The notes under the pieces: generated by a model
What the model saw: the letters and a program-made list of their open reading frames with translations, nothing else
The model's database searches: none
What the model was told of the DNA's origin: nothing
Virus record (IMG/VR): IMGVR_UViG_2663763232_000006
Strand: one strand, 5' to 3'
DNA: 14,419 nt
Source of the DNA: a virus
Taxonomy: Duplodnaviria; Heunggongvirae; Uroviricota; Caudoviricetes
Shown here: positions 1 through 14,419 of the stretch, piece by piece
Layout of the letters: each line of letters starts with the position of its first letter
Numbering within the stretch: the stretch's first letter is position 1
Position numbers and translations under genes: made by a program

Positions 1-18
1 CTCTGACTGAGAGTTTAC

Positions 19-642
19 TCACTTAGCCGCGTGTCCACTATTGCTGGGTAAGATCACAGTTATTGCTAGTAATGATATTTCGAAGCGCTCGATAGGTTCG
101 GACTTGATTTTAGATAGCTCGTTTTGCAAGCTCTCAATAACTTTTTTTGCCTCGGGGTTTTGAGGCATACGTACTTCAACTTTGTCAGCTCCAGGGCGAA
201 GTTCTATTATAACATTCCGCTTGTCGATCTGACGTAATGCAGTTTTAGACAGGTCTATTTCTTCATATTTGTATTCTACTGTAAGCGAGCCATCTTTTTT
301 AGCTACAATATTCAGGCTTTGACCTTTACTAGGGGAGCATGTTTTTTTTAGTGCTTCAGCAGCACTTTTTAATTCGGCCTGATTTGTTGAGGTTTGGAAG
401 CTCACACTAGTAGTGCTTTCCCTTGGGTCATATGTTTTGACCAGTTTTTTTATGTGTTCTAATTCATTAAATCCGTGAGGAAGTTTGGATATTTCCTCGA
501 TTAGTATTTCCTTGTCGAGTTCTGGTGATAAAAACACACCTCGATTCAACAATAATTCATGCAACTTTGCAGCGGTTATCCTTTTATGATGTAATGCATC
601 ATAAATATTTTTATCAGTTGCGAAATATAGTTTTTTAGCCAT
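19..642 (-). CDS. hypothetical protein, 207 aa; second gene of an AT-rich two-gene cargo operon (function unknown, candidate defence-system component)
   Basis: ATG start at 642-640 shares a base with the upstream gene's TAA stop (TAATG on minus strand). GGAG sits ~8 nt upstream. Lys/Glu-rich, no obvious transmembrane segment, no motif I can assign. AT-rich codon usage unlike the phage structural genes. Confidence 0.6.
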   Translation of the reverse strand: MAKKLYFATDKNIYDALHHKRITAAKLHELLLNRGVFLSPELDKEILIEEISKLPHGFNELEHIKKLVKTYDPRESTTSVSFQTSTNQAELKSAAEALKKTCSPSKGQSLNIVAKKDGSLTVEYKYEEIDLSKTALRQIDKRNVIIELRPGADKVEVRMPQNPEAKKVIESLQNELSKIKSEPIERFEISLLAITVILPSNSGHAAK

Positions 643-1643
643 TATCGTTGCTCCATGCCGATTTGTTCAAGATTATATTCAACAACAATTTTGTCTGTCT
701 TGTCGAAGTCAATTTTAAGAAAAAGTCTTTCATCCTCGCCTAAGAGCCAGTCTGTGCTGTATTTCTTTTTCGCTCTTTCAAAATGATGAATGGCATTTTC
801 ATTTGGGTGAATGTGACAATGGCGTAATACGATTGGTTTACCTTCGGTTAATATCTGATAAGTTGATAACATATCAAAGAAGTAAACGAATTCGTCTACT
901 GAATCCCCCGGTTGATTGTAATAAACAACATATCCCTCAGGGTTTTTATCCCTGAGCCAACTGAAAGCCTCATGCTTTATTATAATGTATGGTGATGTTA
1001 ATAATTCAATTGTTGCAGGTGTTGTCTGATTAATAGGGTGCTTTATTCTTGTTAGGGAAAGATCTGGATAATAATATGTGAACTTATCAGGTTGAGGAAG
1101 TTTGCCTGAACCAATTAACTTAGTTATGTCAGAAGATATGTTTATCAAATCTGATATTTTATAAGGGTCAAGCAAATGTAGTTTGATGTTTGGAGGGCAA
1201 TTTATAGATGAGTGATCTAATTTTTTTGTAATATTCTCATAGAAGTCTTTATCATATAAATTATCATGGTTATATAAGAATAATAACCCTCTTACGTTAT
1301 AACCTAAAGAATCATCATGAACATATTTCAATCGCCATTCTTCACTGACATTTGCACATTCGGTAGCTAAAGCAAGCGATGTTAAAGCTCCCTCGACTAT
1401 TTTTTTCCCAATAGTACCTTCTGCATAGCTTTTGAGGTCTGTGTTGAGATAGACCATTTCCTCCTCATATGGATCTATGTAGAAAAATACAACATCGCTT
1501 GGATGTGTTTTCTTGGAATGAGCCTCTTGGCAACAATCCCAATTCATGTCCGCTCTAGCGGCACGATCCCATTTGAACACTGAGAAAATATCATCAGAAA
1601 TCTTACCCGCGACTCGTTGTATAGCCGAAGTCTCTCCACCCAT
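642..1643 (-). CDS. hypothetical protein, 333 aa; first gene of the AT-rich two-gene cargo operon (function unknown, candidate defence-system effector)
   Basis: ATG at 1643-1641 preceded by AAGGAG about 10 nt upstream on the minus strand. Long ORF in an AT-rich region where spurious long ORFs are unlikely. No Walker A motif. His/Cys-rich cluster RHCHIHPNENAIHH near the C-terminus. No family assignable by eye. Confidence 0.65.
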   Translation of the reverse strand: MGGETSAIQRVAGKISDDIFSVFKWDRAARADMNWDCCQEAHSKKTHPSDVVFFYIDPYEEEMVYLNTDLKSYAEGTIGKKIVEGALTSLALATECANVSEEWRLKYVHDDSLGYNVRGLLFLYNHDNLYDKDFYENITKKLDHSSINCPPNIKLHLLDPYKISDLINISSDITKLIGSGKLPQPDKFTYYYPDLSLTRIKHPINQTTPATIELLTSPYIIIKHEAFSWLRDKNPEGYVVYYNQPGDSVDEFVYFFDMLSTYQILTEGKPIVLRHCHIHPNENAIHHFERAKKKYSTDWLLGEDERLFLKIDFDKTDKIVVEYNLEQIGMEQR

Positions 1644-1743
1644 TTCAATCTCGCTCCTTTACAATTGCTGTGGCAATCTGCCTGAAAATCCATCTGACTT
1701 GATGAGTAATCTAACCATATGGTTCGTATGCGTTTGTTGCATG

Positions 1744-1773
1744 ACTATAGCGCATGAAAATGAATGATCGCAA
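1744..1773 (-). promoter_or_regulatory. putative sigma70-like promoter for the two-gene cargo operon (-35 TTGCGA, 18-nt spacer, -10 TATAGT, read on minus strand)
   Basis: Hexamers read directly from the reverse complement of 1744-1773, about 100 nt upstream of the 333-aa ORF start. Not validated. Confidence 0.25.
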
Positions 1774-1793
1774 AAGGATCGTTTTTGCTCAGT

Positions 1794-1820
1794 CCCGCCA
1801 GTTCTGGCGGGCTTTTACTT
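1794..1820 (+). terminator. putative rho-independent terminator (stem CCCGCCA / TGGCGGG, short loop, followed by CTTTTACTT)
   Basis: Perfect 7-8 bp GC-rich inverted repeat followed by a T-rich tract on the plus strand. The minus-strand version is followed by an A-rich tract, so it is probably unidirectional. Confidence 0.4.
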
Positions 1821-1861
1821 ATGTCATGCAGGTGCATGAAAACCACTACACAAAGCGGGCA

Positions 1862-1880
1862 GGCGTGGCGGGGATACGAG
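1862..1880. other. putative cos site (cohesive-end region) of the P2-like phage
   Basis: GGCGTGGCGGGGATACGAG followed by GCGCGCGTAACGG resembles, from memory, the 19-nt cohesive ends of P2 and 186 (GGCG(A/T)GGCGGGGAAAGCA...) and the GCGCGC element after them. The position next to the 3' end of Q matches the P2 layout. Confidence 0.45.
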
Positions 1881-2059
1881 CGCGCGTAACGGGGCGAAAA
1901 AGTAATAATCCCGCGTATTGGAGAGATTGATTTGAAGTTTTCGGGATCGTGTTGCAATATATTGGCACACATTAAATGATGTTGATTTCATTGACTTAAT
2001 GTGGAAATGGAACTGTGAAACAACATACGTCAGCGATGTTACTTTCAAAAGGATAGACA

Positions 2060-2353
2060 ATGAAAACCATATACAACTATGACTTTCAATACTTACGTAA
2101 AGGGGATACGCGACCTCTTGATGATGGAGAGATTGTAAGATGTTCTTCGGAAGACAATCCACTCCTGATGCTTCCGAATGTTGGGGATTATGTCGACATT
2201 ACCAACAATGAAGACCGTGAGTCGTTTGGTGGGAAAGTGAAATCAAGGTTATTCAGATATACTCGAGTAAGTGAAGACCATGTTATTTGCAACATCAATA
2301 TTGTTGTTGAAGAGGTTGAAGACTCGGTGTGGGGCACACTTGTTAAAGAGTAA
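2060..2353 (+). CDS. hypothetical small protein, 97 aa (moron-like accessory gene between cos and Q)
   Basis: ATG at 2060 with AAGGA 6 nt upstream. AT-rich. Immediately followed by a strong hairpin terminator. Convergent with Q. No recognisable motif. Confidence 0.55.
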   Translation: MKTIYNYDFQYLRKGDTRPLDDGEIVRCSSEDNPLLMLPNVGDYVDITNNEDRESFGGKVKSRLFRYTRVSEDHVICNINIVVEEVEDSVWGTLVKE

Positions 2354-2355
2354 AC

Positions 2356-2383
2356 AAAGCGCCTGCAGTAGCAGGCGCTTTCT
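2356..2383. terminator. bidirectional rho-independent terminator between the 97-aa ORF (+) and portal gene Q (-)
   Basis: AAAGCGCCTGC-AGTA-GCAGGCGCTTT: perfect 8-bp GC stem extended by A/T pairs, flanked by T-rich sequence on both strands. Confidence 0.65.
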
Positions 2384-2398
2384 GAGCCTAATCTATAT

Positions 2399-3424
2399 CT
2401 AAAACATATAAGGTTCGAAGCGAATTATTTCTTCGCCCAGCCAGTCGTTAAGCTCCTGCAGTCGCTTCTGTAACGTCATCAGTTCGTTGCGGACAAAGAC
2501 GCGGCTGGCTTTTTCAACATCACCAAATCCCCCAACATTACTCGGCATGATTCCCATCATTTGTGGCGGTACACGGTGCGCAGCCATCATGTCATCGCGG
2601 CTGACATTTTTGATATTCAGAAACTCATCCTTCGCCGCGACTTCTGACAACGGGATGATCTGAAGCCCGTCCTTTTTGCCGTTAGGCGAGTACATGAACA
2701 GATTGCGGAAGTTACCTGGTCCTTTGGCACTTTTCATCGCATTGCGAAGGTTGTTCACGTCCTCCTGGTTCTGCGCGGCATCGGTCATGTACATGATGAA
2801 GCCTGCATGACTGCCGTTAATGTAATACTTACGGCGGAACAGCGTGGCGGACTCGTTGAGCAGGGCTGACGGAATGGCAGAAAGATAACCTGGCAGGCCG
2901 TAGATCTCCTGGTTGATGTCCGGTTCCATCAGATGAAAAATGCTGCCTTTCGTGAACTGATACGGCTGGGTTGTCATACCGTATTGCACAAACCAGTAGG
3001 TATCCAGGTCTAACCCGCGTCGGGTGTATTTTGCCAGAGCAGGCTCAAGGGCGATAACTTCACCGAAACGGTTCGTGCGTTTCTCCAGGTAGGCGTTACC
3101 AAAAACCAGATAGTCCTGTACAAAACGCGAAAAAGCCTGCTGGCTGAGCAGCGGGTGAGGGATGTAGGTGCTGGTCAGAATGTTGCACTTCACTGCAATC
3201 GGTGAGCTGTGATGCACGGCGGCGCGGAAAGTTCGCGCCAGTCCGTCGAAACTCACAGGCGGCTCATACCAACGATCCATCTGTACGCATTCCACATAGT
3301 CCAGCAGTTCGCGGCGGTCCAGAACAGGAACGGGATCACCGAAGCTGAATGCTTCGGCTGAAGTCTGGCCTTTATGCTGGATCTGTTTCGTCGACGCAGC
3401 GCGGTTCTTCTTACTCTTTCCCAT
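2399..3424 (-). CDS. Q: portal protein (P2 gpQ-like)
   Basis: ~341 aa with portal-like sequence, at the P2 Q position. ATG at 3424 overlaps the TGA stop of the upstream terminase gene. The ORF-track start at 3427 is a TTG one codon upstream, which I judge less likely. Confidence 0.93.
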   Translation of the reverse strand: MGKSKKNRAASTKQIQHKGQTSAEAFSFGDPVPVLDRRELLDYVECVQMDRWYEPPVSFDGLARTFRAAVHHSSPIAVKCNILTSTYIPHPLLSQQAFSRFVQDYLVFGNAYLEKRTNRFGEVIALEPALAKYTRRGLDLDTYWFVQYGMTTQPYQFTKGSIFHLMEPDINQEIYGLPGYLSAIPSALLNESATLFRRKYYINGSHAGFIMYMTDAAQNQEDVNNLRNAMKSAKGPGNFRNLFMYSPNGKKDGLQIIPLSEVAAKDEFLNIKNVSRDDMMAAHRVPPQMMGIMPSNVGGFGDVEKASRVFVRNELMTLQKRLQELNDWLGEEIIRFEPYMF

Positions 3425-5190
3425 CAAAAAATCTCCACAATATTGCTGGTATTGGCGGACTCGCCCTGCAGTGGTTCGTTAAACAGTGCGTGCATTGTTG
3501 CCCAGGCCAGATCGGCATGGCTGGCTTCTTCGCTGCGGCTGGCTTCATAGGTCGGGCGGTTGCCACTGGCAGTGGTAGCGCGACGGATTGCCATAAATGA
3601 CTGCGCAATGTCGGTGTGCCCGGCGTCAAACTCCAGACGGCGGTGGCTGATAATGTCGTAGGCCTTGAGTACCAGGGCGTTTTTAACGTTGGGGTTATAG
3701 ACAAACTCCCTGACGGCAGGAAAAAACGCTTTCACGTTCTCGTAAACCCCGTGACCGACGCCGGTCGAGTCGATACCGATATAGGTCACGTTATACTGTT
3801 CGGTCAGTTTTTTGATGGCGTCAGCCTGGGCGCGGAAGTCCATCCCGCGCCACTGGTGACGCTCAAGAATGCGGAACTTACCACCCGGCACGGCTGGCGG
3901 AGCCACCACCACGCATCCGGCACTGTCGCCGTTCTGCGTACCTTTTGCCGGGTCATAACCGATCCACACTTCGCGCCAGCCAAACGGGCGCAGCGCCAGT
4001 GCATGAAAGTCGGTCCAGACTTCCCAGCTGTCCACCATGCACGCCTGCAGCTCGCTGAGCGGGAACACGGACGCGAGATCGTCCACGAACTCACACATCA
4101 GCAGGTTCTGGTATTCGTCCGGGCTGTACTCCATGCGCAACTGGTCGAGGTCGAACAGGTTACAGCCGCCGCGCACCGCATCTTCCACGGTGACTATCTG
4201 GCGGTATTGCCCGTCTGCGCACAGCAGGCCGGGGGCCAGATTGCTGTGGGACAGGTCGATGTCCACCTTGTCAGCTTTGTTGCGCCCACGGTTGAACAGC
4301 GCACCGGACCAGAACGGATAAGCACTGTGGGTCAGACTGGATGGTGTGGAAAAATAGGTCTGCCGCCATTTCTTGTGAATAGCCATACCGGAAGCCACTT
4401 TGCGCAGCTCCTGGAATTTCGGTATCCAGAAATATTCATCCAGATACAGGTTGCCGTGGTAACTCTGGGCCGTGCGGGCATTGGTGCCGAGGAAGTAAAG
4501 CGTGGCCCCGTTGGGAAGCACCATCGGATCGCCTTTCAGCTCCACTTCCACTTCTTTGGCGAAGTCGATGATGTACTGCTTAAAGACGTGGGCCTGTGCC
4601 TTGCTGGCGGAAAGGAAAATCTGGTTACGTCCGGTAAGCAGAGCGTCAATCAGGGCTTCACGGGCAAAGTAAAAGGTCGCGCCGATCTGGCGTGATTTCA
4701 GCAGGTTGCGGATGCGGTTGGTTTTTCCGGCTTCCCACCAGTGGCGCTGGTAGTTGAACATGGAGGAATGGAAGATTTCTTCCAGCTTCTCAATCTGCTC
4801 ATCGGTGAAAACATTCTTTTCCGGCTGACGGCGCGGGCCTTTGTTGCGGTTGGCAACGTTAGGGTTTAAGTCGGCTTCGTTGCCGCCATTGTTAAACTTG
4901 CCGATCCGCGCGTGGCGTTCCGACTGGCGCGCCAGCAGGTCAATCTCTTTGAAATCTTTCCCTTCTTTGTGCTCCTTCATAATGAGCTGGCAGTAGCGTG
5001 CGGCGGTGGTGAGCTGCATCTGATCCAGCGGCCCATAGTCACCCCACTTGTCGCGTTTTTTCCAGCTGTGAACGGTTGCAACTTTCTCGCCCAGCATTTC
5101 AGCAATGCGGGCTACGCGGTATCCCTGAAAGTAGAGCAGCATGGCCTGCCGACGGGGATCGAGATCTGCGGGTGTCAGTGTGGTGTTCAT
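3424..5190 (-). CDS. P: terminase large (ATPase) subunit (P2 gpP-like)
   Basis: 588 aa, matching the size and position of P2 gpP. ATG at 5190. Translationally coupled to Q downstream. Confidence 0.93.
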   Translation of the reverse strand: MNTTLTPADLDPRRQAMLLYFQGYRVARIAEMLGEKVATVHSWKKRDKWGDYGPLDQMQLTTAARYCQLIMKEHKEGKDFKEIDLLARQSERHARIGKFNNGGNEADLNPNVANRNKGPRRQPEKNVFTDEQIEKLEEIFHSSMFNYQRHWWEAGKTNRIRNLLKSRQIGATFYFAREALIDALLTGRNQIFLSASKAQAHVFKQYIIDFAKEVEVELKGDPMVLPNGATLYFLGTNARTAQSYHGNLYLDEYFWIPKFQELRKVASGMAIHKKWRQTYFSTPSSLTHSAYPFWSGALFNRGRNKADKVDIDLSHSNLAPGLLCADGQYRQIVTVEDAVRGGCNLFDLDQLRMEYSPDEYQNLLMCEFVDDLASVFPLSELQACMVDSWEVWTDFHALALRPFGWREVWIGYDPAKGTQNGDSAGCVVVAPPAVPGGKFRILERHQWRGMDFRAQADAIKKLTEQYNVTYIGIDSTGVGHGVYENVKAFFPAVREFVYNPNVKNALVLKAYDIISHRRLEFDAGHTDIAQSFMAIRRATTASGNRPTYEASRSEEASHADLAWATMHALFNEPLQGESANTSNIVEIF

Positions 5191-5236
5191 GGCACAAACC
5201 TACAGCCTTGAATGAAGGCTTTCCCCGCCTGCGGTT

Positions 5237-5254
5237 TGTGTGGTTGTCGGTACA
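5237..5254. promoter_or_regulatory. TGT-N12-ACA dyad in the P/O divergent intergenic region (candidate Ogr-type late-promoter activator site)
   Basis: TGTGTGGTTGTCGGTACA is an exact TGT-N12-ACA. P2 late promoters are known to carry such a dyad centred near -55. This one lies ~88 bp upstream of the O start codon and ~55 bp from the P start codon. Confidence 0.4.
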
Positions 5255-5332
5255 AATACCGCGCATTGTTTCACTGCCCCCATCACCGCAACCATAAGGC
5301 TCCAGTAAGTTTTTTCTAACGGAGCACGGCTC

Positions 5333-6166
5333 ATGACAGTGAAAGCAAAGCGTTTTCGCATCGGGGTGGAAGGTGCCACTACCGACGGACGCGAAATCCA
5401 GCGTGAATGGCTGGAACAGATGGCAGCCAGCTACAACCCGGCGGTGTATACCGCGCTGATTAACCTTGAGCACATCAAGTCTTATCTGCCGGACAGCACC
5501 TTTAACCGCTACGGCAAGGTGACGGCGCTGTTTGCTGAAGAAATCACGGAAGGTCCGCTGGCAGGCAAGATGGCGCTGTATGCCGACGTTGAGCCAACGG
5601 AGTCCCTGGTGGAACTGGTGAAAAAAGGCCAGAAATTATTCACCTCTATGGAAGTCAGCCCGAAGTTCGCTGATACGGGCAAAGCCTACCTGGTTGGCCT
5701 GGCTGCCACTGATGATCCTGCCAGTCTGGGTACGGAAATGCTGACATTCAGCGCCAGTGCAGCCCATAACCCGCTGGCAAACCGCAAGCAGAATCCCGCC
5801 AATCTCTTTACCGCCGCAGAGGAAACGGTGATCGAGCTGGAAGAAGTCCAGGACGACAAACCGTCCCTGTTTGCCCGCGTCACGGCGCTGTTTACCAAAA
5901 AAGAGCAGTCCGATGACGCCCGGTTCTCTGATGTGCATAAGGCCGTGGAGCTGGTCGCCACTGAGCAGCAGAACCTGAGCGCACGCACCGAAAAATCCCT
6001 GTCTGAGCAGGAAGAACGTCTGTCTGAGCTGGAGACTGCCCTGCAGGCACAGCAGACCGCCTTTAACGAACTGGTGAATAAGCTGAGTCATGAAGACAGC
6101 CGCCAGGACTACCGCCAGCGTGCAACAGGCGGTAACGCCCCCGCTGACACTCTGACCAATTGCTGA
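5333..6166 (+). CDS. O: capsid scaffolding protein (P2 gpO-like)
   Basis: 277 aa. ATG at 5333 with GGAG 8 nt upstream. Position and sequence consistent with P2 gpO. Confidence 0.9.
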   Translation: MTVKAKRFRIGVEGATTDGREIQREWLEQMAASYNPAVYTALINLEHIKSYLPDSTFNRYGKVTALFAEEITEGPLAGKMALYADVEPTESLVELVKKGQKLFTSMEVSPKFADTGKAYLVGLAATDDPASLGTEMLTFSASAAHNPLANRKQNPANLFTAAEETVIELEEVQDDKPSLFARVTALFTKKEQSDDARFSDVHKAVELVATEQQNLSARTEKSLSEQEERLSELETALQAQQTAFNELVNKLSHEDSRQDYRQRATGGNAPADTLTNC

Positions 6167-6181
6167 TGGAGCACAAACCTG

Positions 6182-7240
6182 ATGAAGAAGAATACCCGCT
6201 TTGCTTTTAACGCTTACCTGCAGCAACTGGCACGTCTGAACGGTGTGGCAGTTGAAGAACTGTCCAGCAAGTTCACTGTAGAGCCGTCTGTGCAGCAGAC
6301 GCTGGAAGACCAGATCCAGCAGTCCGCCGCTTTCCTGACGCTGATTAACGTCACGCCAGTGACTGAGCAGTCCGGTCAGCTGCTGGGGCTGGGTGTTGGC
6401 AGCACCATTGCCGGAACCACTGACACCACCGCGAAAGAGCGTGAACCTGTCGATCCGACGCTGATGGTCGATGTGGAATACAAATGCGAGCAGACCAACT
6501 TTGACACGGTGCTGACCTACGCGAAGCTGGACCTGTGGGCGAAGTTTCAGGATTTCCAGGTGCGTATCCGTGACGCCATCGTGAAACGTCAGGCACTGGA
6601 CCGCATCATGATCGGCTTTAACGGCGTGAAGCGTGCGAAAACCTCCAACCGTAGTGAAAACCCGCTGCTGCAGGATGTGAACAAAGGCTGGCTGCAGAAA
6701 ATCCGTGAGGATGCACCGGATCACGTCATGGGCAGCACCACCACGGGCGGTGAAACCACTCCGGGTGCGGTGAAAGTCGGGAAAGGTGGCGAATATGCCA
6801 ACCTGGACGCTGTGGTGATGGATGCCGTCAATGAGCTTATCGACGTGGTTTACCAGGACGATGACGATCTGGTGGTGATTTGCGGTCGTGAACTGTTGTC
6901 TGACAAGTATTTCCCGCTGGTCAACAAAGAGCAGGAAAACAGTGAAAAACTGGCTGCCGATATGATCATCAGCCAGAAACGCATGGGTGGCCTGCAGGCC
7001 GTGCGTGCGCCGTTCTTCCCGCCGAATGCGCTGCTGATCACCCGTCTGGATAACCTGTCCATCTACTGGCAGGAAGACACCCGCCGCCGTTCAGTTATCG
7101 ACAACCCGAAACGTGACCGGATTGAAAACTTTGAATCCGTTAATGAAGCCTATGTGGTTGAGGACTACCGCTGCGCCGCACTGGTGGAAAACATCCAGAT
7201 TGGTGATTTCAGCGCCGCCGCAGCCGAAACCGGAGCGTAA
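6182..7240 (+). CDS. N: major capsid protein (P2 gpN-like)
   Basis: 352 aa. N-terminal region (TRFAFNAYL...KFTVEPSVQQTL) resembles P2 gpN as I recall it. Conserved position after O. Confidence 0.93.
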   Translation: MKKNTRFAFNAYLQQLARLNGVAVEELSSKFTVEPSVQQTLEDQIQQSAAFLTLINVTPVTEQSGQLLGLGVGSTIAGTTDTTAKEREPVDPTLMVDVEYKCEQTNFDTVLTYAKLDLWAKFQDFQVRIRDAIVKRQALDRIMIGFNGVKRAKTSNRSENPLLQDVNKGWLQKIREDAPDHVMGSTTTGGETTPGAVKVGKGGEYANLDAVVMDAVNELIDVVYQDDDDLVVICGRELLSDKYFPLVNKEQENSEKLAADMIISQKRMGGLQAVRAPFFPPNALLITRLDNLSIYWQEDTRRRSVIDNPKRDRIENFESVNEAYVVEDYRCAALVENIQIGDFSAAAAETGA

Positions 7241-7243
7241 TCC

Positions 7244-7894
7244 ATGAGCCTGAGTCCCGCACGGCAGCATCGCCTGCGCGTTCAGGCTGAACAGGCCGCC
7301 CGCGAGGGCGGCAGTGTTCGCCACGCATCGGGCTATGACCTGATGCTGCTGCAACTGGCGGAAGACCGCCGCCGTCTCAAGGGCGTTCAGTCCACGGTCA
7401 AAAAAGCGGAAATCAAGGTGGAGCTGCTGCCGAAGTACGCCGCCTGGGCAGAGGGTGTCCTGGCTGCCGGAGGCGCTCAACAGGATGACGTGCTGATGTA
7501 CGTGATGCTGTGGCGCATTGATGCCGGAGATTATGCCGGGGCGCTGGAGATCGGGCGTCATGCCCTGCGTCATGGCTGGGTGATGCCGCTGGGTAACCGC
7601 AACGTGCAGACCGTGCTGGCAGAGGAAATGGCAGACGCGGCGCAGAGCGCAATGCTTGCCGCCACCGGCTTTGATGCCGATCTGTTGCTGCAGACGCTGG
7701 AGCTGACAGACGGTCTGGATATGCCGGACCAGTCACGGGCGCGTCTGCATAAAGCGATTGGCGCTGTCCTGAGTGAAAGCAACCCGGCTTCCGCCCTTAA
7801 TCATCTCAACCATGCGTTACAGCTCGATCCCCGCTGTGGCGTGAAAAAAGACAAACAGCAGCTGGAGCGCAGACTGCGCAATGACAGCCGCTGA
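7244..7894 (+). CDS. M: terminase small (endonuclease) subunit (P2 gpM-like)
   Basis: 216 aa. Contains GAQQDDVLMYVMLWRIDAGDYAGALEIGRHAL, similar to P2 gpM as I recall it. GGAG 8 nt upstream of the ATG. Confidence 0.9.
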   Translation: MSLSPARQHRLRVQAEQAAREGGSVRHASGYDLMLLQLAEDRRRLKGVQSTVKKAEIKVELLPKYAAWAEGVLAAGGAQQDDVLMYVMLWRIDAGDYAGALEIGRHALRHGWVMPLGNRNVQTVLAEEMADAAQSAMLAATGFDADLLLQTLELTDGLDMPDQSRARLHKAIGAVLSESNPASALNHLNHALQLDPRCGVKKDKQQLERRLRNDSR

Positions 7895-7989
7895 CAGAAC
7901 GTGCCCCCGCGCACGGGCGGCACGGGGTGGCGAAAGGCACTGCCACATCAAAACCCCGTCCACCGCCCTCTATTTCAGGAGAAAGCAGC

Positions 7990-8454
7990 ATGAAGTTTGT
8001 TGCGCCAGAACAGGCACCGGAACAGGCGGAAATCATCAGGAATACGCCGTTCTGGCCTGATGTGGACCTGTCGGAGTTTCGCAGCGTGATGCGCACTGAC
8101 GGCACGGTGACGCAGCCGCGTTTAAAGCAGGTTGCGCTGTCGGCAATTTCGGAGGTCAACGCAGAGCTGTATGAGTTTCGCAGACGCCAGCAGATGCTGG
8201 GGTATGCCTCGCTGGCAGAGGTTCCGGCGGAACAGCTGGACGGCAAAAGTGAGCGCATTCAGCACTATTTCAACGCGGTTTACTGCTGGGCACGCGCCAT
8301 GCTCAACGAACGTTACCAGGACTATGACGCCACGGCGTCCGGTGTGAAGCGGGGCGAGGAACTGGCGGAAGCAAGCGGTGATTTGTGGCGTGACGCACGC
8401 TGGGCCATCAGCCGGGTGCAGGATGCGCCGCACTGCACAGTGGAGCTTATCTGA
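7990..8454 (+). CDS. L: head completion / stabilisation protein (P2 gpL-like)
   Basis: ATG at 7990 with AGGAG 8 nt upstream. The ORF-track GTG at 7927 adds a Pro/Ser-rich extension without an RBS. Stop TGA overlaps the start of X (TGATG). Confidence 0.8.
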   Translation: MKFVAPEQAPEQAEIIRNTPFWPDVDLSEFRSVMRTDGTVTQPRLKQVALSAISEVNAELYEFRRRQQMLGYASLAEVPAEQLDGKSERIQHYFNAVYCWARAMLNERYQDYDATASGVKRGEELAEASGDLWRDARWAISRVQDAPHCTVELI

Positions 8455-8657
8455 TGAAAGTGCGTGCGCATCAGTATGACACGGTGGACGCGCTTTGCTG
8501 GCGTCATTACGGGCGCACGCAGGGTGTCACGGAGCAGGTACTGAAGGCAAATCCGGGGCTTGCCGAATACGGCCCCTTTTTACCTCACGGGCTGCAGGTG
8601 GAGCTGCCGGACATTCCGACCACCACCACCGTGCAGACCGTCCAGCTATGGGACTGA
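8454..8657 (+). CDS. X: tail protein X (P2 gpX-like, LysM-like domain)
   Basis: 67 aa, the same length as P2 gpX, with similar sequence as I recall it (...YGRTQGVTEQVLKANPGLAE...LPHG...VELPD). Confidence 0.88.
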   Translation: MKVRAHQYDTVDALCWRHYGRTQGVTEQVLKANPGLAEYGPFLPHGLQVELPDIPTTTTVQTVQLWD

Positions 8658-8660
8658 ATT

Positions 8661-8876
8661 ATGACGCTTGAGCGAATCAGCGCCTTTATCACGTATTGCA
8701 TCGCCGTCGTGCTGGCCTGGCTGGGCGATTTGTCCATCAAGGATGCCTCAACGCTGGGCGGCCTGATGATTGGTGTGCTGATGCTGGCTATCAACTGGTA
8801 CTACAAACACAAAGCCTACCAGCTTCTGCGCGACGGGCAGATCTCGCGGGAGGACTATGAATCCATCAATCGTTAA
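8661..8876 (+). CDS. holin, 71 aa with two predicted transmembrane domains (class II / pinholin-like)
   Basis: Two hydrophobic segments (ISAFITYCIAVVLAWLG and LGGLMIGVLMLAINWYY) and a charged C-terminus. Sits directly upstream of, and overlapping, the endolysin gene. Shorter than P2 gpY (93 aa). Confidence 0.7.
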   Translation: MTLERISAFITYCIAVVLAWLGDLSIKDASTLGGLMIGVLMLAINWYYKHKAYQLLRDGQISREDYESINR

Positions 8877-9369
8877 ACGCTGCCTTGTCGGGACCGTGCT
8901 GGCTATTGCTGCCACGCTGCCGGGTTTTCAGCAGCTTCACACCTCCGTGGAGGGGCTGAAACTGATTGCCGATTACGAAGGCTGTCGTCTGCAGCCGTAT
9001 CAGTGCAGCGCGGGTGTCTGGACCGACGGCATTGGTAATACATCGGGCGTCATTCCCGGCAAAACCATTACGGAGCGACAGGCAGCGGAAGGGCTGATCT
9101 CCAACGTGCTGCGTGTGGAGCGGGCGCTGGAAAGGTGTGTGAAGCAACAGCCGCCGCAGAAGGTGTATGACGCGGTGGTGTCGTTTGCCTTCAACGTGGG
9201 AACGGGCAATGCCTGCAGTTCCACGCTGGTGAAATTACTCAACCAGCGGCGCTGGGCGGATGCGTGCCGACAGTTGCCGCGCTGGGTTTATGTGAAAGGT
9301 GTTTTTAATCAGGGGCTGGATAACCGCCGTGCGCGGGAGATGGCCTGGTGCTTACAGGGAGCAAACTGA
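8857..9369 (+). CDS. endolysin, T4-lysozyme-like muramidase with N-terminal signal-anchor-release (SAR) domain
   Basis: 170 aa. N-terminal weakly hydrophobic Gly/Ala-rich segment (CLVGTVLAIAATLPGF). The catalytic region EGCRLQPYQCSAGVWT fits an E-x8-C-x5-T triad (Cys where T4 lysozyme has Asp). C-terminal LPRWVYVKG resembles P21 R-type SAR endolysins. Confidence 0.85.
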   Translation: MNPSIVKRCLVGTVLAIAATLPGFQQLHTSVEGLKLIADYEGCRLQPYQCSAGVWTDGIGNTSGVIPGKTITERQAAEGLISNVLRVERALERCVKQQPPQKVYDAVVSFAFNVGTGNACSSTLVKLLNQRRWADACRQLPRWVYVKGVFNQGLDNRRAREMAWCLQGAN

Positions 9370-9370
9370 A

Positions 9371-9748
9371 ATGAAAAAGAAATTAATCAGCGGGCTGTTT
9401 CTGATGTTATGGATGGGGCTGTTGATCGCAACAATGATGTATCCACAGGGGATTTTTCCGGCACTGGCAGCATCTGGTGTCTGGGTAGCCTGTCTGCTGA
9501 CATGGGCAGTAATTCCGGTAGCACTGGCTGCGTTAATTAAGAACGGTCCGCTCTGGCAGGAGTTGAGGGCATCTTTGCTGAAGAGCATTACCCGAAAAGA
9601 AAACGTATTTATCAGCTGGGTGATGCGATTGCTGATTGTCGTCAGTCTCGCCTGGACGGGGTGGGCCATTACCCTGGTCTTTTATCTGCTGACCGTTATT
9701 GCCTTCTGGATCACCCGTAATCAGATGGCGCAACAGGTAGCAGCATGA
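9371..9748 (+). CDS. lysA: LysA-like membrane protein (lysis timing / accessory), 125 aa
   Basis: ATG at 9371 with GGGAG upstream, right after the endolysin stop. Several hydrophobic helices. Position equivalent to P2 lysA. The ORF-track start at 9299 is rejected because it overlaps the endolysin and lacks an RBS. Confidence 0.7.
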   Translation: MKKKLISGLFLMLWMGLLIATMMYPQGIFPALAASGVWVACLLTWAVIPVALAALIKNGPLWQELRASLLKSITRKENVFISWVMRLLIVVSLAWTGWAITLVFYLLTVIAFWITRNQMAQQVAA

Positions 9749-10173
9749 ACCGGTTGCTGCTGGTTGTGCTGACGTTATTACTGGCGGCGCTGGGCTGGCA
9801 GACGTGGCGGCTGGCTGATGCCAGCCAGACCATCAGCACGCAGGCAGACGAGCTGCAGAGCAAAAGCCAGGCACTGGCAAAGAGCAATAGCCAGCTTATC
9901 AGCCTGTCCATTCTGACTGAAACCAATAACCGGGAGCAGGCGCGGCTCTATGCCGAAGCAGAACAGACCATTGCACTGCTGAGACAACGACAACACCGGA
10001 TCGAGGAACTGAAACGTGAGAACGAGGATTTACGCCGCTGGGCTGATACTCCTTTGCCTGCTGACATTATCCGGCTGCGGAAACGTCCGGCACTCACCGG
10101 AGGTATGGCTTACCGTCAGTGGTTGTCCGCGAGTGACGCCGTGTCGGCTGGATCAGGCAGCGCCGCGCATTAA
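9745..10173 (+). CDS. lysB: LysB, Rz-like inner-membrane spanin (i-spanin)
   Basis: 142 aa with an N-terminal transmembrane segment (LLLVVLTLLLAALGW) followed by a charged, coiled-coil-like periplasmic region. Start overlaps the lysA stop. Confidence 0.8.
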   Translation: MNRLLLVVLTLLLAALGWQTWRLADASQTISTQADELQSKSQALAKSNSQLISLSILTETNNREQARLYAEAEQTIALLRQRQHRIEELKRENEDLRRWADTPLPADIIRLRKRPALTGGMAYRQWLSASDAVSAGSGSAAH

Positions 10174-10303
10174 CGGTGATCTGAACGCGTTGCTGGATGA
10201 AACGGAAGCAGCCTGGGCGGCCTGTGCAGACAAAGTGGACATGATTATTGCGTGTCAGGAGCGAAACAGTGAACAAACCACAATCCCTGCGCCACGCCCT
10301 TAA
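10016..10303 (+). CDS. lysC: LysC, Rz1-like outer-membrane lipoprotein spanin (o-spanin), encoded in the +1 frame overlapping lysB
   Basis: GTG start preceded by GAGGAA. Lipoprotein signal with lipobox LSGC. Begins inside lysB and extends past its stop, as in the overlapped Rz/Rz1 architecture described for P2 lysB/lysC. Confidence 0.65.
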   Translation: MRTRIYAAGLILLCLLTLSGCGNVRHSPEVWLTVSGCPRVTPCRLDQAAPRINGDLNALLDETEAAWAACADKVDMIIACQERNSEQTTIPAPRP

Positions 10304-10700
10304 TAAAGCAGTGCCTTATGTCCGTAATAACCCGGACAAACTGCATCTGTTTGTGGATAACGGTTCGCTGGTTGCCACGGGGGCCAGCTCCATGTCATGG
10401 GAGTACCGCTACACCCTGAACGTGGTGATTGAGGATTTCAGCGGCGACCAGAATCTGCTGATGGCCCCGGTTTTGCTGTGGCTTCGGGATAACCAGCCCG
10501 ATGCCATCAATAACCCGGCGTTACGGGAAAAGCTATTCACCTTTGAGGTGGATATTTTGCGCAACGATGTCTGTGATCTCAGCCTTAACCTGCAACTGAC
10601 GGAACGTGTGCTGGTCAGTACTGACGGCAGTGTGTCGAGCGTTGAAGCGGTAGCAGAACCCGATGAACCTGAAGAAATGTGGACGGTGAAACGTGGCTGA
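10269..10700 (+). CDS. R: tail completion protein R (P2 gpR-like)
   Basis: GTG start at 10269 with AGGAG 8 nt upstream; the ORF-track start at 10248 is a TTG. Contains NPDKLHLFVDNGS, RYTLNVVIEDFSGD and WLRDNQPD, similar to P2 gpR as I recall it. Confidence 0.85.
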   Translation: MNKPQSLRHALNKAVPYVRNNPDKLHLFVDNGSLVATGASSMSWEYRYTLNVVIEDFSGDQNLLMAPVLLWLRDNQPDAINNPALREKLFTFEVDILRNDVCDLSLNLQLTERVLVSTDGSVSSVEAVAEPDEPEEMWTVKRG

Positions 10701-11139
10701 ACTGCAGAAGGTGGACGACTGGCTTAGTGCCTTACTGGCGAATCTGGAACCAGTCGCAAGAAGCCGCATGATGCGCCAGCTGGCGCAGGAACTGCGCCGG
10801 ACACAGCAGCAGAATATCAGGATGCAGCGCAATCCAGATGGCAGCAGTTATGAACCGCGCAAGGTCACGGCGCGCAGTAAAAAAGGCCGCATCAAACGTC
10901 AGATGTTTGCAAAGCTGCGCACCACAAAATACCTGAAAACTGCCGCCAGCGCCGACTCTGCCAGCGTACAGTTTGAAGGCAAGGTGCAGCGCATTGCCCG
11001 CGTTCACCATTACGGCCTGCGTGATCGCGTCAGTCGCAAAGGACCTGAGGTCCGTTACGCAGAGCGTCGCCTTCTGGGTGTAAATGATGATGTTGAGGCA
11101 ATGACCCGCGACATGATTCTGCAATGGCTGGCGGGGTGA
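10693..11139 (+). CDS. S: tail completion protein S (P2 gpS-like)
   Basis: 148 aa. GTG start overlapping the R stop. Conserved position between R and V. Confidence 0.82.
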   Translation: MAELQKVDDWLSALLANLEPVARSRMMRQLAQELRRTQQQNIRMQRNPDGSSYEPRKVTARSKKGRIKRQMFAKLRTTKYLKTAASADSASVQFEGKVQRIARVHHYGLRDRVSRKGPEVRYAERRLLGVNDDVEAMTRDMILQWLAG

Positions 11140-11142
11140 TTT

Positions 11143-11162
11143 TTGTATCAGCACTGATACAA
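11143..11162 (+). promoter_or_regulatory. TGT-N12-ACA dyad upstream of V (candidate Ogr-dependent late promoter, PV-like)
   Basis: TTGTATCAG-CA-CTGATACAA is a perfect 9-bp inverted repeat containing TGT-N12-ACA, in the S-V intergenic region where P2 has its PV late promoter. Confidence 0.45.
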
Positions 11163-11207
11163 GTTGCAGCACTGCCGCCTTTCTTCCTCTGATGGCAACC
11201 TTTCCCT

Positions 11208-11786
11208 ATGAACGCACAATTAACCGAAATCATGCGCCTTATCACCAACCTGATCCGCACTGGTGTAGTCACCGAAGTGGACAGGACAAACTGGCTTTGC
11301 CGGGTGAAAACGGGCGACCTTGAAACTAACTGGATTAACTGGCTGACGCTGCGCGCGGGTAATGCCCGCACATGGTGGAAACCATCAGAAGGTGAGCAGG
11401 TGGTGCTGCTGAGTCTGGGCGGCAATCTGGAGACTGCCTTTGCGCTGCCCGCTGTCTATTCGAATCAGTTCGCACCACCGTCGACGTCGGCGGACGCCTG
11501 CGTGACAGAACATCCTGACGGTGGCTGGTTTGAATACGAACCCGCCACCGGGCGCTGGTATGTCAGGGGCATCAAATCAATGGTCATTGAGGCCGCTGAC
11601 AACATCACCATGAAAACCAGTGAGTTTGTACTGGAGGCTGACCGCACGCGCATTAACAGCGAAGTGGTGATCAATGGTGGCGTTACCCAGGGCGGCGGAG
11701 CGATGAGTTCTAACGGGATCGTGGTTGATGCGCATCAGCATACTGGCGTCCTGAAAGGCGGCGATACAACCGGAGGCCCGGTATGA
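11208..11786 (+). CDS. V: baseplate spike / assembly protein V (P2 gpV-like)
   Basis: 192 aa. N-terminus and central region (RTWWKPSEGEQV...LETAFALPAVYS...SADA) resemble P2 gpV as I recall it. Confidence 0.9.
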   Translation: MNAQLTEIMRLITNLIRTGVVTEVDRTNWLCRVKTGDLETNWINWLTLRAGNARTWWKPSEGEQVVLLSLGGNLETAFALPAVYSNQFAPPSTSADACVTEHPDGGWFEYEPATGRWYVRGIKSMVIEAADNITMKTSEFVLEADRTRINSEVVINGGVTQGGGAMSSNGIVVDAHQHTGVLKGGDTTGGPV

Positions 11787-12142
11787 CGCTGTATATCGGC
11801 ATGAGTCAGAGCAACGGAAAAGCTATTACAGACACGGACCATCTGCGCCAGTCGGTGCGGGACATTTTGCTGACGCCACAGGGTAGCCGCATTGCCCGTC
11901 GGGAATATGGTTCCCTGCTGTCGGCGCTGATAGACCAGCCACAAAATCCGGCATTGCGCCTGCAGGTCATGTCGGCAGTGTATGTGGCGCTGAGTCGCTG
12001 GGAGCCACGGCTGACGCTGGATTCCATCACCATCAACAGCAACTTTGACGGTTCTATGGTGGTGGAGCTGACCGGGCGGCGGAATAACGGTGTACCTGTG
12101 TCCCTTTCCGTATCAACAGGAGCAGAGAATGGCAGTGATTGA
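11783..12142 (+). CDS. W: baseplate wedge protein W (P2 gpW-like, gp25/lysozyme-like fold family)
   Basis: 119 aa. ATG overlaps the V stop (ATGA). Sequence consistent with P2 gpW. Confidence 0.9.
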   Translation: MTLYIGMSQSNGKAITDTDHLRQSVRDILLTPQGSRIARREYGSLLSALIDQPQNPALRLQVMSAVYVALSRWEPRLTLDSITINSNFDGSMVVELTGRRNNGVPVSLSVSTGAENGSD

Positions 12143-13037
12143 CCTTTCGCAGTTGCCTGCACCGCAGATTGTGGATGTGCCGGACTTTGAGACGCTGCTT
12201 GCCGAACGCAAGGCAGAATTTGTGGCGCTTCATCCGAAAGATGAGCAGGAAGCAGTGATCCGCACGCTGGAACTGGAATCTGAACCCGTCACCAAATTGT
12301 TGCAGGAGAACGCTTATCGTGAGTTGCTTCTGCGCCAGCGCATTAACGAAGCCGCACAGGCGGTGATGGCGGCTTATGCCATAGGGAGCGATCTGGACCA
12401 GCTCGCTGCCAATTACAACGTGAAACGCCTGACGGTGACACCTGCTGATAATGACGCTGTGCCGCCCGTTGCAGCTGTGATGGAAAGCGATGAAGCGTTA
12501 CGCCTGCGTGTGCCTGCAGCCTTTGAAGGGCTTTCTGTTGCGGGGCCAACTGCAGCTTATGAATTTCATGCCCGAAGCGCCGACGGTCGGGTGGCGGATG
12601 CCAGTGCAACCAGCCCGGCACCTGCAGAGGTGGTGCTGACTGTCCTTAGCCGCGAAGGCGATGGAACTGCAGAAAAAGACCTGCTGGACGTGGTGGAAAA
12701 AGCTCTGAACAGTGAGAACGTCCGCCCGGTGGCTGACCGTCTTACGGTTCGCAGCGCAGAAATCATCCCGTATCGCGTGGAAGCCACCATTTTTCTCTAT
12801 CCGGGACCGGAAGCAGAGCCGGTAATGGCAGCGGCAAAAGCCAGCCTGCAGAAGTACATCGCCAGTCAGACGCGTCTTGGTCGGGATATTCGCCGTAGCG
12901 CCATCTTTGCCGCCCTGCATGTTGAGGGTGTGCAGCGTGTGGAGCTGGCTTCTCCTCTGGCGGATGTGGTCCTGAACAAAACACAGGCGGCATCATGTAC
13001 GCAGTGGAGCGTAACCAACGGAGGAACGGATGAATAG
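12129..13037 (+). CDS. J: baseplate assembly protein J (P2 gpJ-like)
   Basis: ATG at 12129 with AGGAG 6 nt upstream gives 302 aa, the length of P2 gpJ. The ORF-track start at 12090 lacks an RBS. Confidence 0.9.
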   Translation: MAVIDLSQLPAPQIVDVPDFETLLAERKAEFVALHPKDEQEAVIRTLELESEPVTKLLQENAYRELLLRQRINEAAQAVMAAYAIGSDLDQLAANYNVKRLTVTPADNDAVPPVAAVMESDEALRLRVPAAFEGLSVAGPTAAYEFHARSADGRVADASATSPAPAEVVLTVLSREGDGTAEKDLLDVVEKALNSENVRPVADRLTVRSAEIIPYRVEATIFLYPGPEAEPVMAAAKASLQKYIASQTRLGRDIRRSAIFAALHVEGVQRVELASPLADVVLNKTQAASCTQWSVTNGGTDE

Positions 13038-13635
13038 TCTGCTGCCACCGGGTTCAACACCACTGGAGCGCCGACTGGCGCAAACCTGCAGCGGGATTTC
13101 TGATCTGCAGGTACCGCTTCGTGACTTGTGGAATCCGGCAACCTGTCCGGTCAGTTTCCTGCCTTATCTCGCCTGGGCGTTCTCTGTGGATCGCTGGGAC
13201 GAGGGCTGGACAGAAAGCGTCAAGCGCCAGGTGGTGAAGGATGCTTTTTATATTCATCAGTATAAAGGGACCACCAGTGCCGTGCGGCGGGTGGTGGAGC
13301 CGTTCGGCTTTCTGATCCGCATTATTGAGTGGTGGCAAACCGGAGAGGCACCGGGCACGTTTCGCCTGGATATCGGCGTGCAGGACCAGGGCATCACTGA
13401 AGATACCTATCTGGAACTTGAGCGACTGATAAGCGATGCCAAACCATGTAGCCGTCACATGATCGGCATGTCCATCAACCTGCAGACCAGCGGCACGCAT
13501 TGGGTAGGAGCCGCCAGCTATCTTGGCGAAGAAATCACGATCTATCCGTATATCAACGAAACAATTATTTCCGGCGGCACCGCGCATGAAGGCGGGGCGG
13601 TCCATGTTATTGACACAATGAGAGTGAATCCATGA
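13030..13635 (+). CDS. I: baseplate / tail protein I (P2 gpI-like)
   Basis: 201 aa. GGAGGAA upstream of the ATG. Overlaps the J stop and the H start. Confidence 0.88.
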   Translation: MNSLLPPGSTPLERRLAQTCSGISDLQVPLRDLWNPATCPVSFLPYLAWAFSVDRWDEGWTESVKRQVVKDAFYIHQYKGTTSAVRRVVEPFGFLIRIIEWWQTGEAPGTFRLDIGVQDQGITEDTYLELERLISDAKPCSRHMIGMSINLQTSGTHWVGAASYLGEEITIYPYINETIISGGTAHEGGAVHVIDTMRVNP

Positions 13636-14381
13636 GCACAAAATTTTATACCCTGCTGACGGATATTGGCGCGGCGAAACTTGCCAGCGCCGCCGCGCTC
13701 GGTGTGCCGCTAAAAATTACCCATATGGCGGTGGGCGATGGCGGCGGAGTATTGCCAACGCCGGACGCAAAGCAGACGGCACTGGTAAATGAGAAACGCC
13801 GGGCTGCGCTGAATATGCTTTATATCGACCCGCAGAACAGCAGCCAGATTATTGCTGAACAGGTGATCCCTGAAAACGAGGGCGGTTGGTGGATACGTGA
13901 AGTGGGCCTGTTTGATGAGTCCGGGGCATTGATTGCCGTGGGCAACTGCCCGGAAAGCTATAAGCCGCAACTGGCTGAAGGCAGCGGGCGCACCCAGACC
14001 GTGCGCATGGTGCTGATTACCAGCAGTACGGACAATATCACCCTGAAAATCGACCCTGCCGTTGTGCTGGCAACCCGCAAGTATGTGGATGACAAGGCAC
14101 TGGAGCTGAAGGTGTACGTGGATGACCAGATGGCAAAACATCTTGCCGCACTGGACCCGCATTCGCAGTATGCACCCAAAGAAAGTCCAACGTTTACCGG
14201 AACTCCCAAAGCGCCAACGCCAGCGGCGGGGAATAATACCACGCAGCTTGCGACCACCGCATTTGTTCAGGCGGCACTGACGGCTCTTATTAATGGTGCG
14301 CCAGCCACGCTGGACACGCTGAAAGAAATAGCCGCAGCCATTAACAATGATCCGAAATTTAGGGCACTGTTGCAAAGTTAG
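13632..14381 (+). CDS. H: tail fibre protein H, conserved N-terminal (baseplate-proximal) part; reading frame ends at a TAG after 249 codons
   Basis: N-terminus (...MAVGDGGG...ESYKPQLAEGSGR...) and the C-terminal stretch TGTPKAPTPAAGNNTTQLATTAFV...LDTLKEIAAAINNDPKF resemble the conserved part of P2 gpH as I recall it (~669 aa in P2). Here a TAG stop follows directly at 14379-14381. Confidence 0.85.
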   Translation: MSTKFYTLLTDIGAAKLASAAALGVPLKITHMAVGDGGGVLPTPDAKQTALVNEKRRAALNMLYIDPQNSSQIIAEQVIPENEGGWWIREVGLFDESGALIAVGNCPESYKPQLAEGSGRTQTVRMVLITSSTDNITLKIDPAVVLATRKYVDDKALELKVYVDDQMAKHLAALDPHSQYAPKESPTFTGTPKAPTPAAGNNTTQLATTAFVQAALTALINGAPATLDTLKEIAAAINNDPKFRALLQS

Positions 14382-14419
14382 CGATGAGGCAGCCTTTTGT
14401 CTTATTCAAAGGCCTTACA

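Follow-up and report, generated by a model that had tools for sequence, protein, structure and literature searches.

An IS26 end in the tail-fibre gene H of a P2-like Escherichia coli prophage

Why does the tail-fibre gene H at this locus stop after 249 codons, with a new ATG opening directly behind it? The original prediction for the window (the whole stretch of 14,419 nucleotides analysed here) placed this stop at the junction between the conserved and the variable parts of the fibre, and offered several accounts of it: the distal fibre might be a separate gene, the junction might be a site of module exchange, or the gene might be disrupted. The reading frame is present as described, with a 249-aa ORF at 13632-14381, a TAG at 14379-14381 and an ATG in another frame at 14384, and the length of approximately 669 aa given there for P2 gpH agrees with the 2010 nt CDS in AF063097.1 (669 aa). 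The last of these accounts is the one that held, since an IS26 end abuts nt 731 of H. We conclude, with a probability of about 95%, that in this P2-like (Peduoviridae) E. coli prophage one end of IS26 has broken gene H directly behind nt 731 (codon 243). The features concerned, in window coordinates, are as follows.

1..56, minus strand: terminal 56 nt of IS3; the prophage matches all start at query 57
13632..14381, plus strand: truncated gene H ORF, with ATG start, 249 aa and TAG at 14379-14381
13632..14362, plus strand: 5' part of the P2-like gene H, 731 nt, i.e. codons 1-243 plus 2 nt
14355..14362, no strand assigned: AAATTTAG, the 8 bp adjoining the IS26 end; in a simple insertion, these would be the target-site duplication
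14363..14419, minus strand: first 57 nt of IS26, the end adjoining the 3' end of tnp26, with 57/57 identity to IS26
14384..14419, plus strand: ORF of the new ATG, a chance ORF inside IS26, antisense to tnp26

The H ORF lies directly after the baseplate genes V, W, J and I, in the same order as in the annotated prophage and in P2. A Pfam scan detected the Phage_tail_fib N-terminal domain (PF12571, E=3e-65) at aa 1-150, and the phage-derived fragment (13632..14362) consists of this N-terminal tail-collar fibre domain and most of the first 74-aa shaft repeat, with the motif LKEIAAAINNDPKF at aa 230-243. Both the PF12571 N-terminus and the V-W-J-I-H synteny are points of likeness to the gpH of P2 and the S proteins of P1 and Mu. 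A megablast search with 13632-14419 as the query against phages and complete E. coli genomes gave nucleotide identities of 99.9% with XH988 (E. coli) and of 96-97% with the phages Cartapus and 500465-1, and all of the phage and E. coli matches (96-99.9% identity) ended at query 728-731, corresponding to 14359-14362 of the window. At the protein level, 242 of the 243 residues of the fragment were identical to H of XH988; beyond them the window reads ...PKF RALLQS (stop), whereas the relatives read ...PKF STTINNALALK.... The C-terminal receptor-binding part and the fibre assembly chaperone gene are absent from the window, the phage-derived ORF ending at codon 243, and a look-up of the exact 249-aa product found none on record. 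The H of the window is a truncated member of the P2-type gpH family and, in effect, a pseudogene.

The DNA that follows is IS26. Positions 14363-14419 are identical (57/57) to nt 1-57 of the 820-bp IS26 from plasmid NZ_CP024194.1. The last 60 bases of the window matched at approximately 100% in at least 5000 plasmids, in features annotated 'IS6-like element IS26 family transposase', and at least 4965 plasmids matched the IS26 end at 99% or more. The 14-bp terminal inverted repeat of IS26, GGCACTGTTGCAAA, is present as an exact and single copy in the window (14363-14376), beginning exactly where phage homology stops. Read base by base, the window runs ...GATCCGAAATTTAG followed by GGCACTGTTGCAAAGTTAGCGATGAGG..., whereas intact XH988 and 08-00022 run ...GATCCGAAATTTAG followed by TACCACCATTAACAATGCG.... 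Across the break site, the intact relatives read ...CCGAAATTTAG followed by TACCACC (in the longer reading, by TACCACCATTAAC), so that gene H continues with TACCACC where IS26 reads GGCACTG; the phage DNA ends at 14362, the limit of the relatives' homology.

Since 14363-14419 are IS26, the last six codons of the ORF (RALLQS), the TAG and the downstream ATG are IS26 sequence, apart from the first two bases of the R codon, which are phage. Codon 244 (R) combines AG from the phage with G from IS26, and codons 245-249 (ALLQS) and the stop are derived wholly from IS26 (14363..14381, plus strand). The tnp26 stop codon (TAA, minus strand) lies at 14415-14417, and the window includes this stop and 2 nt of tnp26 (14415-14419); the transposase CDS is likewise on the minus strand in the retrieved locus L003. 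The ATG at 14384 opens the frame MRQPFVLFKGLT, which differs from that of H and is open to the end of the window. Translated through the full IS26, it gives MRQPFVLFKGLTFQKL...SPQYL and stops after 46 codons; this ORF is non-coding IS26 DNA, and its ATG is no gene start. Of IS26, the window contains one end of 57 nt, so that neither the full extent of the element nor its transposase or target duplication is in view.

The H frame enters the terminal repeat of IS26, gains the six foreign codons and reaches the TAG within the element. The truncated product keeps the N-terminal domain, which presumably attaches to the baseplate, and approximately 90 shaft residues. Missing from it are the second of the shaft repeats, the crossover site and all of the receptor-binding tip. 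Gene H is an essential virion gene of P2. Because H is essential and its receptor-binding half is missing here, the prophage would have no functional fibre from this copy of H, and infectious particles are not expected unless it is complemented.

When members of the IS6 family insert simply, or when their cointegrates are resolved, 8-bp target duplications result; their transposition is replicative, with intramolecular events leading to deletions or inversions without flanking repeats (PMC7986276). H and IS26 meet precisely at the outermost base of the element, which is what transposition predicts. If IS26 was simply inserted, AAATTTAG should be repeated at its far end, where the junction would read CTTTGCAACAGTGCC and then AAATTTAGTACCACCATTAAC, and another contig would carry the remainder of H together with the tail genes. 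Alternatively, IS26 may mark the end point of a deletion or inversion, as in E. coli E47. We consider simple insertion and a deletion or inversion end point to be roughly equally likely. A search of the GTDB species representatives (genome_contigs) and the JGI metagenomes (metagenome_contigs) with a degenerate pattern, built to match one or the other IS26 junction together with the expected 8-bp duplication and validated on the window, gave no match.

Among the complete E. coli genomes, none had the same junction as the window, and only E47 had IS26 beside H. In E47, a separate IS26 (6792-7611 of the retrieved locus L002) is located in H at nt 791/792, 60 nt further into the gene and in the same orientation. 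Its flanks, CTCACCGG and GTTATGAT, show no 8-bp duplication, and a truncated gabP lies on its far side; this is an IS26-mediated deletion of the rest of that prophage. The occurrence of two IS26 hits within 60 nt in the shaft-repeat region of H may be a coincidence. It is very improbable that this region is a preferred target of IS26, or that the truncated 243-aa H is kept because it is useful to the host, as it might be if it disturbed particle assembly in P2-like phages that superinfect the cell.

The window thus resembles known IS26 insertions and adjacent deletions in Enterobacteriaceae in its 57 identical nucleotides including the 14-bp inverted repeat, in the break at the IS terminus, in the end of the contig within a repeat, and in the E47 event in the same gene. 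It differs in that one end is visible here, so that the target duplication, the transposase and a partner IS26 are outside the view, and in that the target is a prophage structural gene, whereas IS26 insertions are usually described from resistance-gene contexts. The disruption of H by IS26 is a known kind of event, and neither a novel fibre organization nor a novel recombination site.

The intact locus of the relatives shows where the constant part of the fibre ends. Intact H is a single continuous protein of 473-502 aa (473 aa in XH988 and 502 aa in 08-00022). The 08-00022 protein carries PF12571 at its N-terminus and a Collar domain near its C-terminus, and its gene is followed by a Caudo_TAP chaperone gene, then by a second chaperone gene and a gp53-like tip cassette, both on the opposite strand, and by a serine recombinase gene. 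The fibre tips of the relatives are either Collar or gp53-like, each with its own Caudo_TAP assembly chaperone, and their invertase matched Resolvase (PF00239, E=2e-53) and HTH_7 (PF02796, E=1e-15). Of two inverted repeats, TTCTCGCATACCTTGGTTTGGGAGAAG and its partner, one occupies H nt 1037-1063 and the other lies a short way upstream of the recombinase gene; a cix-like crossover site, ATACCTT followed by GGTTTGGGAGAA, lies at H nt 1050/1051 in codon 350, 319 nt downstream of the IS26 site. Between XH988 and 08-00022, collinearity extends across H nt 1-1063 and holds again in the recombinase gene, but the interior is inverted; the two H proteins agree as far as ...LLAYLGLGE and are wholly different beyond. 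The lineage therefore carries a classical Cin/Pin-type invertible fibre segment with its constant/variable junction at codon 350, and the two genomes are natural inversion isomers. Cin/Pin-type fibre switching is an already known kind of system. Homology to e14/pinE-type segments starts at H nt 1038-1049. The invertible segment measures approximately 1.85 kb and lies in opposite orientations in 08-00022 (23612-25475 of locus L004) and XH988 (7037-8968 of locus L001). In RefSeq, H of XH988 is annotated as a pseudogene fragment (6001..6390) and a separate gp53-like protein (7012..7422); the stretch 6001-7422 of L001 is one open ORF of 473 aa, and the split looks like an annotation artefact.

The stop at 14379-14381 was therefore not at the conserved/variable junction: the relatives are collinear to nt 1063 and diverge at the nt 1050/1051 site. 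The motif LKEIAAAINNDPKF, which had been taken as a marker of the junction, belongs to the first of two shaft repeats. It recurs as LNELAAALGNDPNF at aa 304-317 of intact H, and the two copies are part of a tandem 74-aa repeat, 81% identical to repeats b1 and b2 of P1 S. In P1 gene S (M81956.1), the boundary annotated between Sc and Sv lies within the core that is also found at the crossover site of the relatives, ATACCTT followed by GGTTTAAGAGAA. The relatives resemble the Cin/Gin/Pin systems in the cix-like site, the two tips each with a chaperone and the resolvase-family invertase, whereas H of the window stops at codon 243 inside the first repeat, without an invertible apparatus. P2 gpH aligns with the intact H protein to about aa 332-340; P2 differs from the relatives in its 669-aa H and the lack of an invertible segment.

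A natural split of the fibre, in which the lineage would have a short H of approximately 249 aa and a separate distal-fibre gene starting at ATG 14384, is suggested by an ATG 2 nt after the stop and by a frame that is open to the end of the window. However, this ATG and everything beyond it belong to IS26, the frame closes after 46 codons antisense to tnp26, the closest relatives (96-99.9% identity) carry H as one continuous protein, and a short H was found in no relative except E47, where the gene is itself cut by IS26. We regard a split fibre as vanishingly improbable, and the separate distal gene of the original prediction falls with it. It is also extremely unlikely that the stop marks a point of module exchange, whether through invertase crossover, as a DGR target or where cassettes are swapped. 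In favour of exchange are the fibre-tip segment and serine invertase of the relatives, the opposite orientations of that segment in two of them, and the mosaic fibre genes of the family, with recurrent homology breakpoints in H at nt 464, ~1040 and ~1250. The suggestion of inversion was accordingly sound as regards the relatives, which have an invertible segment with a Gin/Cin-type invertase, but inversion does not end the ORF here. The crossover site lies 319 nt downstream of the break, and the site ATACCTTGGTTTRRGAGAA has no match anywhere in the window at up to 3 mismatches, a scan that also bears out the earlier statement that the last 38 bp show no Gin/Hin-type crossover site. No homology breakpoint was seen at nt 731 among the relatives; in alignment with related tail fibres, homology reads straight on past this point. 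The foreign DNA at the break is IS26, and neither a serine recombinase nor a reverse transcriptase was found in the window by the ORF list and synteny with the annotated prophage.

An assembly or sequencing artefact, in which the IS26 end was misjoined to an H that is intact in the cell, would account for a window that ends inside repeats at both sides, as in a fragmented assembly, and no independent record of the junction was found. Against this, the IS26 inverted repeat begins precisely at the join, as is predicted by transposition but not by a k-mer misjoin; H and IS26 have no common sequence at the join that could mislead an assembler; and the complete E47 genome contains a similar real event. 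We hold such an artefact to be very unlikely. The chief value of the IS26 reading is a correction: the apparent split of the fibre where two modules meet is the boundary of an IS26, probably at the end of a contig, and has no place among new fibre architectures, DGR targets or inversion sites. This copy of the prophage is probably defective in fibre production.

The other end of the window is formed by IS3. Bases 1-60 matched 14668 places in E. coli genomes, beside CDSs annotated 'IS3-like element IS3 family transposase', and the junction, read base by base, is ...GGGTAAGATCA followed by CAGTTATTGC. The IS3 end cuts a gene at 19..642 (minus strand) after 195 of its 359 codons and supplies the tail VILPSNSGHAAK before the stop. 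PADLOC identified this gene as Hp2 (PDLC03005, E=5e-129, profile positions 1-195 of 359), and the three-gene Hp system is broken by IS3 in the window genome. Hp1 is intact at 642-1643 (minus strand) and adjoins the truncated Hp2 (PDLC03004, E=1e-239); Hp3 (PDLC03006) is present in 08-00022 (region 7837-10587 of L004) and would lie beyond the IS3 end in the window genome. A Pfam scan of Hp1, Hp2 and Hp3 gave no match. The three genes are located in the gpA-gpQ hotspot of P2-like phages. A three-gene system without recognizable domains in the P2-like hotspot is reported to protect against P1 (Rousset 2022, PMC9122126); the term '3HP' was not found in the main text of that paper.

The window thus comprises 14,306 bp of prophage flanked on either side by a multicopy IS element, of which 56-57 nt are included. 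Since it starts 56 nt inside IS3 and stops 57 nt into IS26, it is probably a short-read contig broken in repeats. The remaining prophage genes are all open and syntenic with the 08-00022 prophage, to which window positions 57-14359 show 98.0% identity. The window is comparable to prophages decaying through IS elements in having two of them, the first in a virion gene that is essential and the second in an accessory gene for defence, but differs in that the remaining 14.3 kb is open throughout and shares 98% identity with a prophage that is apparently intact, and because of this both IS events look recent. Given the flanking IS3 and IS26, both terminal genes, H and Hp2, should be treated as truncated in the typing of this prophage and of its host range and defence cargo.

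Between Hp1 and the portal gene lies a 97-aa ORF (2060-2353, plus strand), conserved in 08-00022 under the annotation hypothetical protein and without a PADLOC match. The cos region is presumably located near 2060-2353; a putative P2 cos 19-mer had no match at up to 3 mismatches, and either the 19-mer or the lineage may differ. An Rfam scan of the window detected no family at the gathering score. The spacer between S (virion-morphogenesis gene) and V (baseplate gene) measures 68 nt in the window (11140-11207). At this spacer, XH988 carries a GmrSD restriction endonuclease gene (1523-3298 of L001) and E47 a hypothetical gene of 157 aa (3008-3481 of L002), and the S/V spacer may serve phages of this kind as a second hotspot for cargo.
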